A DNA stretch of 64,000 nucleotides from a virus. Position numbers and translations under genes: made by a program. The notes under the pieces are model-generated. The model was not told the origin of the DNA and searched no databases. It saw nothing but the letters and a program-made list of their open reading frames with translations. The stretch spans positions 26,232 through 90,231 of IMG/VR virus record IMGVR_UViG_3300030390_001550. One strand, given 5' to 3'. How positions within the stretch are numbered: the stretch's first letter is position 1; each line of letters begins with the position of its first letter. Below are positions 3,511-19,583 of the stretch, piece by piece.

Positions 3511-3864
3511 ATGGCAAATAAAAAACCAAAGCAACTTGAACATGAATCAAAGTATGAATACCTAGATAGGGACGGGGATGGAATCATCTCTGATGATGAA
3601 ATGGCAAATGAAAAAAGAATGATTGAACTAGAAGATTTACGTTCTGATATGGAAAATGAGGACAAGAAGCAAGATGCTCAAAGAGCAATGGCATGGTTCG
3701 CGCTTGCTGGAATGTTACTATATCCATTTGCTGTTGTCCTCGCTGCATGGGTAGGTCTTGAAAAAGCACCTAATATTCTTGGTGATATGGCCCCTACATA
3801 CTTTGTTTCTGTTGCTGCTATTGTTGCAGCATTTTATGCTAAAGAAGTTCTACACAAGAAATGA
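3511..3864 (+). CDS. small membrane protein with EF-hand-like loop (holin-like)
   Basis: DRDGDGIISDDE loop followed by two hydrophobic helices. Confidence 0.55.
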   Translation: MANKKPKQLEHESKYEYLDRDGDGIISDDEMANEKRMIELEDLRSDMENEDKKQDAQRAMAWFALAGMLLYPFAVVLAAWVGLEKAPNILGDMAPTYFVSVAAIVAAFYAKEVLHKK

Positions 3865-3986
3865 AAAATATTAACACGATCAGAGATGTGTGTTATAATT
3901 GTAAGTGTAAATCTCACTGCGAGAAAGAATGTAAGTCTTGCAGAAATGATGTTTGTATAAAATGCGAGTGTCCTCGCTGTAAATAA
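3861..3986 (+). CDS. 41-aa Cys-rich metallothionein-like peptide (not in ORF track)
   Basis: MKNINTIRDVCYNCKCKSHCEKECKSCRNDVCIKCECPRCK, 10 Cys; ATGA overlap with upstream stop; fills the gap. Confidence 0.6.
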   Translation: MKNINTIRDVCYNCKCKSHCEKECKSCRNDVCIKCECPRCK

Positions 3987-5488: not shown

Positions 5489-6184
5489 ATGAAAACTAAT
5501 ATAATATATAATTCTATATCAGAAAAATCATCTGAAAATGCTCTACTTTGTAGACAATCTTTTAATAATTTTAAAGGTTGGGATGTTGAAATATTTGATG
5601 GTTGTAATCCATTAAACTTACATAAATATCACAATAAATATAATTTGAAAACCACTGAGAGAACACTACATCAAGATAGACCATTAGTGAAAATACATTC
5701 AAAGAAATGTTGTTTTTATTCCCATTACGAGTTATGGAATAGATGTGCTGAATCTGGAAAAAATATGGTTATAGTTGAGCATGATACTGAGTGTGTATTA
5801 GACAACAATATACCAGAGTTTGACCCAAAAGAAAAACTTGCAATGCAATTAAGTACTGATACCATTTTATGGAATTGGCCTTGGTACAATACCGAAAAAA
5901 ATAAAGAAAAATATGAAAAAAATGGTAGTGGTGTGCATGAAATATTTTATTCACAACCCAATGGTGTAAAATGTATGTCTGGTAATACTGCATATTTAAT
6001 AACACCAGCGGCATGTGAGCATTTAATACAAGATTGTATTAAAAATGGATGGACGCAAAACGATTTGTTAATAAATACAAGCCAATTTCCATTATATTAC
6101 TATGCGCCTTCACCAATCGCATATATAAAGTCAAGAGAATTGAGATCATCTAGTGTGGGCGTAATAAAGGATTTTATTAAATGA
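5489..6184 (+). CDS. glycosyltransferase family 25-like
   Basis: CFYSHYELW, IVEHD, GNTAYLITP...D motifs. Confidence 0.75.
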   Translation: MKTNIIYNSISEKSSENALLCRQSFNNFKGWDVEIFDGCNPLNLHKYHNKYNLKTTERTLHQDRPLVKIHSKKCCFYSHYELWNRCAESGKNMVIVEHDTECVLDNNIPEFDPKEKLAMQLSTDTILWNWPWYNTEKNKEKYEKNGSGVHEIFYSQPNGVKCMSGNTAYLITPAACEHLIQDCIKNGWTQNDLLINTSQFPLYYYAPSPIAYIKSRELRSSSVGVIKDFIK

Positions 6185-10913: not shown

Positions 10914-11495
10914 ATGAATAATACAACAAATGGCGGTTCACAACCAGCAATGATTCCACCAAAAATGCAATTAATTTCAAATGGAATGTATGTGTTTATG
11001 GGTGATGTGTCTATGGATACGATGAGTCCAATTATTGATTGGATATTATCAGAAAATATGAAAAGAAGTGATAGACAAAAAGAATTGACTTTAGGTATTT
11101 GCTCAAGAGGTGGTGATCTTAATGCTTGCTTTGCATTAGTTGATGTTTTGAGAGCATCAACAATTCCTGTTAAGACTGTAGGATTAGGTATGATTGCATC
11201 TTGTGGTTTGCTTTTATTTATATCTGGACAAAAAGGTAAAAGAATTTTAACACCAAATACTGCAATTTTATCTCATCAATATTCTTGGGGTAGTGTAGGT
11301 AAAGAACATGAATTGTTTGCCAGAGTGAAAGAGATGGAACTCACAACCGAGCGTATGATTAATCATTACAAAAAATGCACTGGGATGAATGAAAAAAAAG
11401 TAAGAGAGTTTCTTCTTCCACCAGAAGATGTTTGGTTAAGCGCAGAGGAAGCAAAAAGTTTAAAACTTTGTGATAAAATAGAAGATATACAATAA
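10914..11495 (+). CDS. clpP: ClpP-like serine protease
   Basis: ICSRGG, GLGMIASCG (Ser), KGKR, LSHQ (His), DVWLSAEEA (Asp). Confidence 0.85.
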   Translation: MNNTTNGGSQPAMIPPKMQLISNGMYVFMGDVSMDTMSPIIDWILSENMKRSDRQKELTLGICSRGGDLNACFALVDVLRASTIPVKTVGLGMIASCGLLLFISGQKGKRILTPNTAILSHQYSWGSVGKEHELFARVKEMELTTERMINHYKKCTGMNEKKVREFLLPPEDVWLSAEEAKSLKLCDKIEDIQ

Positions 11496-11523
11496 AAATA
11501 TTACTAAATACATCTAATGAGTT

Positions 11524-11550
11524 GAGGAAGCCTTGGCTTCCTCTTTTTTT
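11524..11550 (+). terminator. intrinsic terminator
   Basis: GAGGAAGC-CTTG-GCTTCCTC followed by T7. Confidence 0.85.
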
Positions 11551-11566
11551 AAAAGAAAGAGAGAAA

Positions 11567-12394
11567 ATGACACAACTGATAAATCCAAAGAAATTTACTA
11601 ACACTGTGGGGCTTTTACGCTCCTTTTTTTTGACCAGAGGGTTTCAAGAAGTACATACGCAAAATAGATTAAGCATTTTAGCAGCATGTGAAGACCCAGA
11701 AAATGTAGCAAGTTATAATTATGAAGGTGAGGTTTGGCCTTTACCGCAAACAGGTCAAATGTGGCTAGAACATGAATTATTATCTGATCCCTCTGCGAAG
11801 GGATTTTTTTGTGTCTCCACTTCATATAGACAAGAACCAAACGCAATTCCAGGTAGACACGATACGATTTTTCCTATGTTTGAATTTGAAATGGCAGGTG
11901 ATATTAATGATCTTAAAGTTATGGAAAGACAATTAGTAAGTCACTTAGGTTTTGACGATTGCACAGAGAAAACGTATGGAGAATGGCAGCAACATTATGG
12001 TGTTAGTGCAAATACCGAATTGGATGCCCAACATGAGTTGGCAATGCAAGCATCATTCGGTTCTTGTATGATTACAGATTTTCCAGAGATAACAAGTCCG
12101 TTTTGGAATATGTCTAGAAACGAGGATGGTACAAGTAGAAAAATTGATGTTATCCTTGGTGGTATGGAAACTATTGGTAGTGCAGAACGCAGTACCGACA
12201 AAGAACAAATGAGAAACACATTTAATACAATTTCTAATGGTGAATATGCTGGACTCATCAAGAGTTTATTTGGAGATGAAAGGGTTGAGGCAGAACTTGA
12301 AAAGTTTCTTGAGTTTGATTTCTTCCCAAGAGTTGGTGGTGGTATAGGGTTGACACGAATGATATCCGCTCTAGAAACTCAAAAGAGTAACTAA
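11567..12394 (+). CDS. class IIb aminoacyl-tRNA synthetase catalytic domain only (AsnRS/AS-AR-like), 275 aa
   Basis: Motif 1 LRSFFLTRGFQEVHTQ, LPQTGQMWLE, motif 2 SYRQE...RH...FPMFEFE, ETIGSAER, motif 3 GGGIGLTRM; no N-terminal OB domain. Confidence 0.85.
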   Translation: MTQLINPKKFTNTVGLLRSFFLTRGFQEVHTQNRLSILAACEDPENVASYNYEGEVWPLPQTGQMWLEHELLSDPSAKGFFCVSTSYRQEPNAIPGRHDTIFPMFEFEMAGDINDLKVMERQLVSHLGFDDCTEKTYGEWQQHYGVSANTELDAQHELAMQASFGSCMITDFPEITSPFWNMSRNEDGTSRKIDVILGGMETIGSAERSTDKEQMRNTFNTISNGEYAGLIKSLFGDERVEAELEKFLEFDFFPRVGGGIGLTRMISALETQKSN

Positions 12395-12403
12395 AGCGCA
12401 TAT

Positions 12404-12514
12404 TCTGGGGTGGTGGAATAGGTAGACACGCGATACTGTTTATATCGTGGATATATAGTTAAGTGTAAAAGACTATTTATATTCGTGAAGGTTCGAGTCC
12501 TTCCCCCAGAGCCA
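12404..12514 (+). tRNA. atypical tRNA-Asn(GTT) with 39-nt variable arm
   Basis: Acceptor TCTGGGG/CCCCAGA, G73, CCA; D-arm GTG-GAATAGGTAGA-CAC; anticodon arm CGATA-CTGTTTA-TATCG; T-arm GAAGG-TTCGAGT-CCTTC. Confidence 0.85.
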
Positions 12515-12528
12515 AAGGAAATAAAAAA

Positions 12529-13392
12529 ATGATACCAGTGATTGATTTAAATTCTTCATATGCAAATCAGCATATTGAGGATGCCTACACATCTGTGGGT
12601 TTTGCAGTTTTTACTAATAGTTTAACTCAAATTGAAAAGTCTGACATAATTAGTTGGTTTAGCGAAATGAAAGCATTTTTCAATTTACCTGATGAAATAA
12701 AGAAAAAATATCCATATGAAGGCGATACCAATCTAGGATATAGCATGGTGGGTGATGAAAATGTTGATCCAACAGCACCTAAAGACATTAAAGAATCTTT
12801 CAATTACAATAATACAAGAATGAGCGAATATCTTTGGCCCAAAGAACTTCCAGGATTTAAAGCAACAGCATTACAAAGTATTGATGTTGCAGACAAACTT
12901 ACGATTAGAATACTTAGTAGGTTTGATGAAATTCTAAAATGTGGCACTACTCTTGTGGACGCTCATATGAAACCATTTAACACTACAAGAGTTATTCATT
13001 ACCCAGCCCATGATGGTCCAGTAGAAGATAAGCAAATGAGAATAGGTGAACATAGTGACTATGGTACTATCACATTACTGTGGCAAATTAATGATGTTCC
13101 AGGATTGCAAGTTCAAGACTTAAAAGGAGAGTGGCATCCAGTGCCATATGATGTTGACGGTGTGGTTGTGAATATTGGCGATCTACTCCAGAGATGGACA
13201 AACGATTACTTTAAAAGCACTAAGCATAGAGTAGTTAATTCGCATATACATAAGACTAGATACAGTATGCCACATTTTGTTGATCCTACTCCAGGAACAA
13301 TGGTGAAAAATTTGAGAACCCATGAGGTTGACAAGTACTTACCTATTGAGAGTAAAGAATATTTGATGTGGAGACTAGCACAAAGTTATTGA
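12529..13392 (+). CDS. 2OG-Fe(II) oxygenase, isopenicillin N synthase family
   Basis: IPVIDL, HSDYGTITLL, GLQV, VNIGDLLQRWTN, HRV, RYS. Confidence 0.9.
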   Translation: MIPVIDLNSSYANQHIEDAYTSVGFAVFTNSLTQIEKSDIISWFSEMKAFFNLPDEIKKKYPYEGDTNLGYSMVGDENVDPTAPKDIKESFNYNNTRMSEYLWPKELPGFKATALQSIDVADKLTIRILSRFDEILKCGTTLVDAHMKPFNTTRVIHYPAHDGPVEDKQMRIGEHSDYGTITLLWQINDVPGLQVQDLKGEWHPVPYDVDGVVVNIGDLLQRWTNDYFKSTKHRVVNSHIHKTRYSMPHFVDPTPGTMVKNLRTHEVDKYLPIESKEYLMWRLAQSY

Positions 13393-19289: not shown

Positions 19290-19514
19290 ATGCTTACATG
19301 CTTAATAGTTGCAGGATCATTATGGATAGGTGATGACACTAGGATGTTTCCAACACAAGGAGCGTTTTATTTTATTAAACAAAGAGATGTGATTGTAATT
19401 TATGATAATTCAAAACGAACAAGAATCGCTAGTTTTGTAATACCAAAGAATGTTAAAGGCGATACTATAAAAGAAGTATTTGAAAATTGTAATAACGCTC
19501 CCATGGTGGAATAG
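19290..19514 (+). CDS. hypothetical protein
   Basis: AAGGAG RBS; 3' end runs into tRNA-Leu. Confidence 0.55.
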   Translation: MLTCLIVAGSLWIGDDTRMFPTQGAFYFIKQRDVIVIYDNSKRTRIASFVIPKNVKGDTIKEVFENCNNAPMVE

Positions 19515-19583
19515 GTAGACACACCAGACTTAAAATCTGTTGCCCATAGTGGCGTCCCAGTTCAAGTCTGGGTGGGAGTACCA
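19497..19583 (+). tRNA. tRNA-Leu(TAA)
   Basis: GCTCCCA/TGGGAGT acceptor, A73, CCA, loop CTTAAAA, type II variable arm. Confidence 0.93.

Follow-up and report, generated by a model that had tools for sequence, protein, structure and literature searches.

We have identified an unusual tRNA gene and a closely associated enzyme gene in a 64,000-nt stretch of DNA from a marine phage (the window; GC 33.9%). The tRNA gene lies on the plus strand at 12404–12514, and is a 111 nt gene for a class II-type tRNA(GUU) with an encoded CCA, the cloverleaf of which is also its minimum-energy fold. In the acceptor stem the 5' strand TCTGGGG (U1 to G7, 12404–12410) pairs with CCCCAGA at 12504–12510, and the 3' end is completed by the discriminator G73 (12511) and the CCA (12512–12514). 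U8, G9 and a Leu-type D arm occupy 12411–12429, with a 3-bp stem (GTG/CAC) and an 11-nt loop containing GG. The anticodon arm (12431–12447, stem CGATA/TATCG) displays the loop CTGTTTA (CUGUUUA in RNA, 12436–12442), in which the anticodon GTT (GUU) is at 12438–12440 and position 37 is a T (U) at 12441. The 39-nt variable region (12448–12486) folds in the RNAfold minimum-energy structure as a hairpin of 12 pairs with a 2-nt bulge, a 10-nt loop that includes GUAA, and the sequence UAUUUA in its 3' strand; the T arm, GAAGG-TTCGAGT-CCTTC (12487–12503), has a canonical T loop and is seen by both cmscan and covariation. Two other plus-strand genes bear on this tRNA. The partner gene at 11564–12394 codes for a 276-residue class IIb aminoacyl-tRNA synthetase (aaRS) catalytic core that lacks an anticodon-binding domain (PF00152, 8.4e-16) and ends just 9 nt upstream of the tRNA, and a phage tRNA-Leu(TAA) is situated at 19497–19583. 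There is an alternative TTG start for the enzyme at 11522, but we favor the ATG at 11564 because of a terminator-like hairpin at 11524–11543. At this locus we found neither a sigma-70-like promoter upstream of the enzyme gene nor a terminator downstream of the tRNA. The T4-late-promoter-like sequence TATAAATA occurs on the minus strand inside the extra arm (12474–12481), although with 13 instances in the window relative to 12.0 expected we do not regard it as evidence.

The tRNA gene is readily overlooked. ARAGORN does not report it, and an Rfam gathering scan of the whole window misses it at the fast filters. A local cmscan scores it at 43.8 bits with the RF00005 tRNA model (E 2.6e-8; the gathering cut-off is 29 bits), covering model positions 1–71 with the extra arm as an insertion, and the match is recovered when the whole virus record is searched; R1, a model built for this tRNA family, scores the gene at 93.7 bits. 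For the 97–103-nt forms among 84 stretches downstream of enzyme genes, ARAGORN gives the isotypes Asp(atc), Glu(ctc), Gly(acc), Ile(aat) and Stop(tta), which we reject as mis-parses of the long arm. This is an annotation trap, in which the longest forms are missed and those of intermediate size are miscalled as Asp, Glu, Gly, Ile and stop-reading tRNAs. The predicted folding energy of the window tRNA is -30.2 kcal/mol (RNAfold, z = -1.69), and since nine of 200 shuffled sequences fold equally well, energy alone is weak evidence for the gene.

The comparison with relatives is more informative. In 53 distinct relatives (A1), 99.8% of 1239 stem cells are paired, and compensatory, both-sided changes are present at 18 of the 24 pairs (198 cells); none of 500 shuffles reaches the observed level of covariation, and slid controls pair only 39–63%. 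All five helices covary, including the base of the extra arm (helix 4), the D stem, all five anticodon-stem pairs, and the acceptor stem with compensatory changes at pairs 2–5 and 7. These values come from an anchor-based parse requiring at least 6/7 acceptor, 4/5 T and 4/5 anticodon-stem pairs, which slightly favors pairing, and 12 of the 84 stretches were left out of it: five with no tRNA, one cut by a contig end, five with a bulged T stem, and one in which the tRNA lies further downstream. Conservation of the tRNA family extends to enzymes as little as about 55% identical, and the elongator elements of the tRNA (the T loop, G18G19, the 7/5 stems and CCA) are all intact. The gene at 12404–12514 is therefore a real tRNA gene under structural selection. 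A decaying tRNA-Leu duplicate or a chance cloverleaf could be suspected from the failure of ARAGORN and the default Rfam scan and from the modest folding z-score, but covariation throughout the helices together with the depth of conservation makes either hardly credible, and the stems without covariation that the initial annotation named as the sign of a pseudogene are clearly not observed.

The body of this tRNA descends from a Leu-type (class II) tRNA. The 19-mer at 12411–12429 is repeated exactly at 19504–19522 inside the window's tRNA-Leu(TAA) (two matches, with 0.00 expected from 100 shuffles), and no other gene in the window is as closely related to the tRNA body as this one, which ranks second there with R1 (46.8 bits). 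In one bacterial genome R1 finds a family member first and then six tRNA-Leu genes (55–71 bits), with tRNA-Ser and the normal tRNA-Asn (49.3 bits) ranking below them, and because the next-best matches are tRNA-Leu genes the description of a Leu chassis holds. The resemblance to bacterial and phage tRNA-Leu includes the 3-bp D stem, the D arm, and a long variable arm with a UG start and a CGU end. The variable region also qualifies as class II on its own terms, being well above the ~10 nt that mark this class and having its own stem-loop with a covarying base. However, a Leu anticodon and A73 are both absent; the family instead has GUU, U1:A72 and G73, and an arm of up to 39 nt compared with 15 nt in the window tRNA-Leu(TAA). 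The tRNA-Leu discriminator is A73, which LeuRS needs. The initial annotation had drawn attention to the 19-nt identity, to the 39-nt region with its 12-bp arm, and to the pyrimidine at position 37, all of which are as described, and its proposal of an identity switch from a type II tRNA is borne out by the R1 ranking and the tRNA-Asn marks described below.

G73 and U1:A72 are identity marks for bacterial AsnRS and GatCAB. Both are invariant in A1 (U1:A72 is UA in 53 of 53 sequences), although one distant family member has U1-G72, and the GUU anticodon is present in 53/53 as well as in 17 further members. In these three features the window tRNA matches a normal bacterial tRNA-Asn. The loop C-U-G-U-U-N-A is likewise that of canonical tRNA-Asn(GUU), but the latter is a class I tRNA of ~74 nt that has A37, a D stem of 4 bp and only a short variable loop. 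tRNAs that read codons starting with A carry A37, the t6A site, and the U37 of the window tRNA departs from this. The base is not a fixed feature of the family: position 37 is U in 41, A in 10 and C in two of the 53 sequences, with G in one more distant member of a wider set, and at least nine changes are counted, roughly, on the enzyme tree. The peculiarity of the family is thus the loss of the purine-37 rule rather than U itself, and the suggestion that U37 is a fixed, selected feature does not hold. We also note that U33 is replaced in four of 20 tRNA-bearing loci, representing three distinct sequences (L253/L254, L279 and L270). The extra arm ranges from 5 nt, in one distant member, to the 39 nt of the window tRNA, the longest seen, and its size changes many times between close relatives, with TATTTA invariant in 31/31 extended arms. 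These arm comparisons use an end-anchored count and single-sequence folds; alignment of the 31 extended arms alone with MAFFT and RNAalifold predicted no pairs, with the 5' sides misaligned. Arm extension and base 37 vary by lineage and would not be central to the mechanism that we favor below.

The partner enzyme is AsnRS-like by its motifs. A profile of the enzyme family compared with PDB matches AsnRS best (4.3e-14), followed by AspRS (7.5e-12), and more weakly an archaeal asparagine synthetase paralogue (3p8t, 2.9e-7), EpmA-type proteins (8.6e-6) and LysRS (about 1e-4). Its motifs QTGQMWLE, FEFE and ETIGSAER correspond to QSGQLYGE or QSSQLYLE, VEPE and EIIGGGQRE in AsnRS, whereas the first two sites read QSPQ..KQ and VDIE in AspRS, whose third site lies outside the alignment. 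EpmA/PoxA is a LysRS core acting on EF-P, and archaeal asparagine synthetase A is an AsnRS paralogue without an anticodon domain; both resemble the phage enzyme in being stand-alone class IIb cores of about 280 residues, although their profile matches are poorer than that of AsnRS, and we know of no dedicated tRNA gene for either.

The enzyme and the tRNA are inherited together. Of 83 enzyme loci searched with R1, 77 have the tRNA immediately 3' of the enzyme gene, one is truncated by a contig end and five have no such tRNA. Starting from the tRNA, the enzyme gene ends no more than 400 nt upstream in 79 of 80 loci that match a tRNA pattern, and as the remaining tRNA is preceded by just 60 nt of sequence, this is 79 of 79 assessable loci; the pattern required the commonest D stem and YTGTT, and these loci and the 80 enzyme loci were drawn from one collection, with some contigs common to both. 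In the phage clade of the enzyme tree 70 rows have the tRNA and four do not. This is a FastTree phylogeny of 127 distinct rows with many open forks, for which 18 of 166 loci with short or interrupted matches were dropped, so change counts on it are rough and would be inflated by enzyme-tRNA recombination. Other neighboring genes vary by phage, with a lipase in P-SSM2/5 and a 2OG oxygenase in the window phage.

The enzyme family itself is widespread in marine metagenomes, where all 8000 scored candidates have E ≤ 0.001 and 425 representative clusters reach E ≤ 1e-10, and it is found without the tRNA in several settings. The tRNA is missing at five of 80 phage loci, there is no copy within 1.5 kb in two huge-phage records, and none of 31 GVMAG-named contigs carrying enzyme relatives contains a family tRNA. 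Some relatives are fused to dihydroorotate dehydrogenase (DHODH; 10 clusters) or to OMP decarboxylase (one cluster). In a Dependentiae MAG the genes next to a relative encode OMP decarboxylase, a phosphoribosyltransferase and a DHODH-like protein, and the homologue in a Peribacteria MAG comes directly after an amidase-family gene; a full pyr cluster is present at only one of three bacterial loci scanned, from five found. A search with the distant representative P0153 found no viral locus, and an Atlas search with the enzyme returned only the protein's own kind.

Short forms of the tRNA are already annotated as tRNA-Asn in GenBank. The Prochlorococcus phages P-SSM2, P-SSM5 and P-SSM7 (AY939844, HQ632825 and GU071103) have tRNAs so named that belong to the same family (R1, 78–81 bits), directly 3' of a gene annotated 'tRNA ligase' and with the CUGUUUA loop, U1:A72, G73 and Leu-type D arm. 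They differ in having a 17-nt variable region rather than 39 nt and no encoded CCA (TTT follows G73), and unlike the window gene they are found by ARAGORN. In P-SSM2 the tRNA-Asn feature is annotated about 2 kb away from the actual gene.

All known bacterial class II tRNAs serve Leu, Ser, Tyr or Sec. The closest precedents among long-arm tRNAs with anticodons outside Leu, Ser and Tyr are the metagenome-found allo-tRNAs and tRNA-Sec, which, in the portions available to us of Mukai et al. 2017 (PMC5389517), have 8/4, 9/3 or 8/5 acceptor/T branches (12–13 bp) and are charged by SerRS or AlaRS. The window family differs in that covariation defines a 7-bp acceptor and a 5-bp T stem, and in having its own AsnRS-like neighbor, and so does not belong to that class. 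Aptamer-tagged tRNAs with variable-arm hairpins can still work in translation, according to the available part of PMC7590224, although these are engineered rather than natural and use another chassis. Our literature search, with supplements outside its scope, found no paper on this tRNA or on the enzyme-tRNA pair, nor any under host AsnRS or position 37. In the parts available, Sullivan et al. 2010 (PMC3037559) has the 'tRNA ligase' T4-GC 194 only as a gene-table entry, and PMC12801897, PMC7824862 and PMC7609411 do not mention the tRNA or the pair.

Hosts and transcription provide some further context. For the window phage, psbA was not found in the 90-kb virus record. In four picocyanobacterial genomes, which resemble the hosts of the isolate phages, asnS is above the cut-off in none and gatB in all four, and the family tRNA is absent from the same four. 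In the window asparagine accounts for 6.4% of codons and AAT alone for 5.25%. One RNA library contains a contig of 1095 nt, about 93% identical, that covers both the enzyme gene and the complete tRNA, although carry-over of DNA is possible. In RNA run X1 there is an exact-match contig that reaches only to 12413, with 12414–12589 uncovered; since contigs cannot show RNA ends, we propose no processing site from it.

Several models merit consideration, and in all of them the charging enzyme, the amino acid loaded and the decoding role of the window tRNA are inferred. We tentatively favor, at a little under an even chance, a model in which this Leu-derived class II tRNA with an Asn identity set is the dedicated partner of the AsnRS-like core enzyme encoded 9 nt upstream. 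The tRNA would be co-transcribed with the enzyme gene, and because the enzyme has no anticodon reader, recognition would be through the acceptor end (U1:A72 and G73) and the Leu-type body including the base of the extra arm. The enzyme would load asparagine directly, or alternatively aspartate that host GatCAB then amidates, and the charged tRNA would read AAU and AAC in cells such as Prochlorococcus that lack their own AsnRS. Several observations weigh against this dedicated-partner model. The enzyme occurs without the tRNA at some loci and so does not depend on it everywhere; the DHODH and OMP decarboxylase fusions and pyr neighbors point to metabolism; and a free position 37 and replacements of U33 are odd for a working decoder. 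To our knowledge, core-only AsnRS paralogues are asparagine synthetases only, with none charging a tRNA. The anticodon is invariant even though the enzyme cannot read it, which indicates selection by another agent, either the ribosome or a host enzyme.

The metabolic associations raise the alternative that the tRNA is a carrier, a dedicated handle for an Asn- or Asp-derived intermediate that the enzyme holds or transforms, possibly feeding pyrimidine synthesis, with host enzymes that recognize GUU and U1:A72 perhaps loading it first. The fusions, the Dependentiae neighbors and the Peribacteria amidase-family gene are all consistent with this, as are the relaxed decoding constraints (any base at 37, and non-U33 in three distinct sequences) and the invariance of the anticodon and U1:A72. 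However, this tRNA is absent from the relatives that are fused or linked to pyrimidine genes, whose chemistry therefore does not need it, the elongator elements are intact, the full pyr cluster is seen at just one of the three bacterial loci scanned, and the sequence by itself does not specify a reaction; we consider the carrier model unlikely. A specific version, in which a non-decoding tRNA is loaded by host ND-AspRS and GatCAB and the phage enzyme converts the bound Asn or Asp to a pyrimidine-ring precursor, is distinctly improbable. The tRNA could instead be an ordinary supplementary tRNA-Asn charged by host ND-AspRS and GatCAB or by AsnRS, within an asparagine-supply cassette for an AT-rich phage in which the enzyme has a separate role, such as that of an asparagine synthetase. 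The host-side marks GUU, G73 and U1:A72 are all present, AAT is a frequent codon, the enzyme is tRNA-free in some phages and in giant-virus DNA, and the archaeal core-only paralogues such as 3p8t are asparagine synthetases. However, this does not explain why tRNA-Asn would be rebuilt on a long-arm Leu body, nor does it account for a tRNA never seen without the enzyme at assessable loci; the enzyme matches AsnRS better than it does the archaeal synthetase, and with asnS in none of the four picocyanobacteria a plain asparagine synthetase would not feed translation in such hosts, where free asparagine cannot enter it. We view this model, like that of a carrier, as unlikely.

Two further proposals concern the anticodon loop and the long arm. 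Available parts of PMC10264068 argue that phage tRNAs evade tRNA-targeting defenses through anticodon-loop changes, and a pyrimidine at 37, perhaps along with the foreign body, could similarly escape host anticodon nucleases or modification-dependent toxins, a role compatible with the other readings. In 43 of 53 sequences position 37 is indeed not the A that normal tRNA-Asn has, but it varies among all four bases and A37 is kept in 10 of 53, no nuclease targeting tRNA-Asn in marine hosts was identified here, and the enzyme linkage is left unexplained; evasion is improbable. Lastly, the initial annotation entertained mischarging by LeuRS or SerRS, whereby AAY codons would receive Leu or Ser. 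The Leu-type D arm fits the former, and the long arm with G73 fits SerRS, for which these are marks according to the accessible part of PMC7609411. Nonetheless, with G73 where LeuRS needs A73, and an invariant Asn identity set, the tightly linked AsnRS-like enzyme is a better candidate than either, and such recoding is very improbable. The acceptor stem of tRNA-Ser also does not begin with U1:A72 and C2:G71, as this one does.

This is a natural and strongly conserved family that breaks the rules both for the isotypes of class II tRNAs and for A37, joining a Leu body with Asn marks and a free position 37. If the enzyme does charge the tRNA, the two would constitute a compact natural orthogonal pair, useful for genetic-code engineering, and would show identity moving from the anticodon to the tRNA body; phages of hosts without AsnRS would gain their own direct route to Asn-tRNA. 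If it does not, the pair would point to unfamiliar tRNA-linked chemistry, and were the conversion to a pyrimidine precursor to occur, a tRNA-dependent entry into pyrimidine synthesis would be carried by very abundant ocean viruses.

The GUU-anticodon tRNA gene at 12404-12514 (plus strand) is real, conserved, Leu-derived and marked for asparagine, and it is tied to an AsnRS-like enzyme. As read from the sequence, it comprises an acceptor stem with 5' strand TCTGGGG and 3' strand CCCCAGA, U8 and G9, a D arm GTG-GAATAGGTAGA-CAC, G26, an anticodon arm CGATA-CTGTTTA-TATCG with the anticodon GTT at 12438-12440 and T at position 37 (12441), a 39-nt variable region (12448-12486), a T arm GAAGG-TTCGAGT-CCTTC, and G73 followed by an encoded CCA. 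This cloverleaf is the best structure found by RNAfold, with an extra arm of 12 pairs, a 2-nt bulge and a 10-nt loop, and its energy is unremarkable (z = -1.69). ARAGORN, suggested as a check in the initial annotation, does not report the gene and neither does the default Rfam scan, but a local cmscan matches it to RF00005 at 43.8 bits against a cut-off of 29, as does a search across the full 90-kb virus record. The description of a tRNA-Asn on a tRNA-Leu chassis, with U37 and a 12-bp extra arm, is borne out in each element by the sequence, the fold and a 19-mer match.

That 19-mer, at 12411-12429, is an exact copy of 19504-19522 in the tRNA-Leu(TAA) gene of the window (two matches, against none expected). 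The tRNA-Leu(TAA) is also the second-best match within the window to the covariance model of the tRNA family, and its variable region is only 15 nt, compared with 39 nt in the GUU tRNA. When the same model was run against a bacterial MAG of 2.4 Mb that contains a family member (110 bits), the next-ranked genes were six tRNA-Leu (55-71 bits), followed by two tRNA-Ser, a normal 74-nt tRNA-Asn (49 bits), tRNA-Tyr and then tRNA-Met. U1:A72, G73 and G34-U35-U36 are invariant in 53 distinct family sequences, and the normal bacterial tRNA-Asn of the MAG has the same marks, with its own loop CUGUUAA. The ranking of tRNA-Leu and the invariant Asn marks together support the original proposal that a type II tRNA switched identity. 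We also note a C-U mismatch atop the anticodon stem (27:43) of the window tRNA-Leu(TAA), at positions 19524 and 19540.

The same gene pair is found in Prochlorococcus phages P-SSM2, P-SSM5 and P-SSM7, annotated as 'tRNA ligase' and 'tRNA-Asn' (85-88 nt), such short forms of the family tRNA being already present in GenBank. 'tRNA ligase' appears in a table of Sullivan et al. 2010 (PMC3037559), and our literature search found no study on the architecture of the tRNA or on the enzyme-tRNA pair. The GenBank tRNA-Asn feature of P-SSM2 (AY939844.2) lies about 2 kb downstream of the true site (locus positions 5826-5911 versus 3814-3901), within a hypothetical CDS. Enzyme relatives are encoded by 596 of 599 candidate IMG/VR stretches, the best 80 of which were kept. 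The core of the 53 distinct tRNA sequences aligns readily, and 99.8% of 1239 cells in the cloverleaf and extra-arm base are paired, a value slightly biased towards pairing by a parse that required near-complete stems. Both-sided changes occur in 18 of 24 pairs (198 cells), none of 500 shuffles matches these pairing and covariation values, and slid controls pair at only 39-63%. A lack of covariation had been named as the sign of a pseudogene; with compensatory changes this widespread, the window gene is a functional RNA, and a pseudogene is scarcely credible. An extra bulged base is present in the T-stem 5' strand at five loci (L016, L038, L039, L041 and L044; three distinct sequences), whose tRNAs still score 87-89 bits with the covariance model.

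The extreme arm and U37 are features that vary between lineages. U37 is present in the window and typical of the family, but it is not fixed (U in 41, A in 10 and C in 2 of the 53 sequences), having changed at least nine times on the enzyme tree, and the purine rule at position 37 is simply not kept. In more distant members (L253/L254, L279, L270 and L282), G, C or A replaces the near-universal U33 in three distinct sequences, one member shows U1-G72, and G37 occurs in one together with a variable loop of only 5 nt. Variable regions of parsed members otherwise fall into classes of 13-17, 28-33 and 35-39 nt, with at least 13 changes of class on the enzyme tree, and the longest arm seen is that of the window and a 95%-identical relative, L004. 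All arms fold as hairpins, the short ones often ending in a GNRA-type loop, and the loops of 31 extended arms are mostly GCAA or GTAA. All 31 share TATTTA without variation on the 3' strand (12474-12479 in the window), while the opposite strand varies A/G with pairing retained through G-U, and likeness between extended arms often exceeds that of the surrounding tRNA stems. Read on the minus strand, the window TATTTA yields TATAAATA (12474-12481); this motif is not enriched in the window over chance expectation.

Linkage to the enzyme is seen from both directions. With the covariance model, 77 of 83 loci have the tRNA immediately 3' of the enzyme gene; in one more the copy is cut at a contig end, and five (L008, L014, L026, L034 and L075) lack it. 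A reverse search with a degenerate D-arm and anticodon pattern found at least 120 viral stretches and returned 80 loci, overlapping the enzyme-locus set in part; in 79 of them the end of a same-strand enzyme gene lies within 400 nt upstream, and the sequence of the remaining locus extends only 60 nt upstream. Among genomes of 185,579 species the pattern matches three contigs, two of which, both in marine MAGs, have the family tRNA with all or part of the enzyme gene. One of these two, carrying the pair, is a 335-kb contig of a Neomarinimicrobiota MAG (L211, contig C57 of G001). Its further genes include those for PEPCK, an AlgH-like protein and an HNH endonuclease, and its far end resembles the window in having tRNA-Leu(taa) beside tRNA-Arg(tct); the contig probably represents a large phage genome or viral DNA binned into a bacterial MAG. 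L008 is the closest relative without the tRNA (enzyme 85% identical); there the enzyme gene abuts the same 2OG-Fe(II) oxygenase gene that begins 14 nt downstream of the window tRNA, an arrangement suggestive of clean loss of the tRNA, or of its absence, inside the window's own clade.

The enzyme gene (11564-12394, plus strand) stops 9 nt upstream of the tRNA and encodes a 276-residue protein from an ATG at 11564. A strong terminator-like hairpin and T run (11524-11543) separates it from a ClpP-like gene, so that a 290-residue TTG-start ORF is probably too long; no terminator is found 3' of the tRNA. The protein is a class IIb aminoacyl-tRNA synthetase catalytic core only (PF00152, 8.4e-16), with no anticodon-binding domain. 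The enzyme family is large: all 8000 scored candidates fall at E <= 0.001, and among 50%-level representatives 663 reach that threshold and 425 reach E <= 1e-10. Against solved structures, a profile built from 46 diverse members matches AsnRS (4.3e-14) ahead of AspRS (7.5e-12), the archaeal Asn synthetase paralogue (2.9e-7), EpmA-type proteins (8.6e-6) and LysRS (about 1e-4). By sequence motifs, the family resembles AsnRS at three pocket sites, which we take to hold the side-chain-binding residues: QTGQMWLE (AsnRS QSSQLYLE or QSGQLYGE, AspRS QSPQ..KQ), FEFE (AsnRS VEPE, AspRS VDIE) and ETIGSAER (AsnRS EIIGGGQRE, LysRS EFANAFSE).

Charging of the tRNA by host enzymes, with the neighbouring enzyme acting independently, is unlikely. 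GatCAB recognizes U1:A72, and the invariant pair is compatible with recognition by either GatCAB or the phage enzyme. Four picocyanobacterial genomes were examined: Synechococcus RCC307 and three complete genomes of Prochlorococcus, among them one whose psbA is identical to the P-SSM2 gene. None has an asnS match above the cut-off or the family tRNA, all have gatB and three have an AsnB-type synthetase; cells of this kind form Asn-tRNA by the indirect route. There, the free Asn that a plain Asn synthetase makes could not be used for translation, a point against an independent Asn synthetase in these hosts. The window comes from a T4-like marine myovirus (33.9% GC) to which isolates (Melnitz, HTVC008M and cyanophages) are only distantly related, and psbA is absent from the record. 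Defence evasion, compatible with the other readings, is rather improbable, and mischarging of this Leu-type body very much so. Among contigs of four marine metatranscriptome runs, one of 1095 nt covers 11453-12547, the enzyme gene and whole tRNA, with 78 differences, and relatives' T arms and extended arms lie on other such contigs; these show presence in RNA libraries, which is no proof of transcription or processing.

A tRNA-linked metabolic role is doubtful. The five phage loci without the tRNA, together with more distant enzyme relatives, speak against a strict enzyme-tRNA pair. On a FastTree tree of 127 distinct enzymes, one clade has 70 rows with the tRNA and four without, and the other three with and 44 without, requiring six changes. 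The tRNA is absent from 60 of 80 sister-clade loci, including all 31 GVMAG-named contigs (a name taken to mean giant-virus MAG), and from within 1.5 kb of the enzyme in two huge-phage records. Longer relatives (P0271-P0279, P0124 and P0136) are fusions to dihydroorotate dehydrogenase (10 clusters, 53-56% identical to the enzyme) or OMP decarboxylase (one cluster, 43%), and two giant-virus-named contigs (L215 and L277) encode the full dihydroorotate dehydrogenase fusion. Bacterial homologues (41-45% identical) adjoin OMP decarboxylase, phosphoribosyltransferase and dihydroorotate dehydrogenase-like genes in a Dependentiae MAG (L391:5019-8611), and directly follow an amidase-family (GatA-like) gene in a Peribacteria MAG (L390:3482-5882). 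The tRNA-less loci and pyrimidine-gene associations point to a possibly metabolic chemistry of the enzyme, with the tRNA perhaps a phage-specific addition. The best reading, which we hold tentatively, is a private charging pair, in which the AsnRS-like enzyme would charge its companion tRNA to serve AAY codons with Asn.
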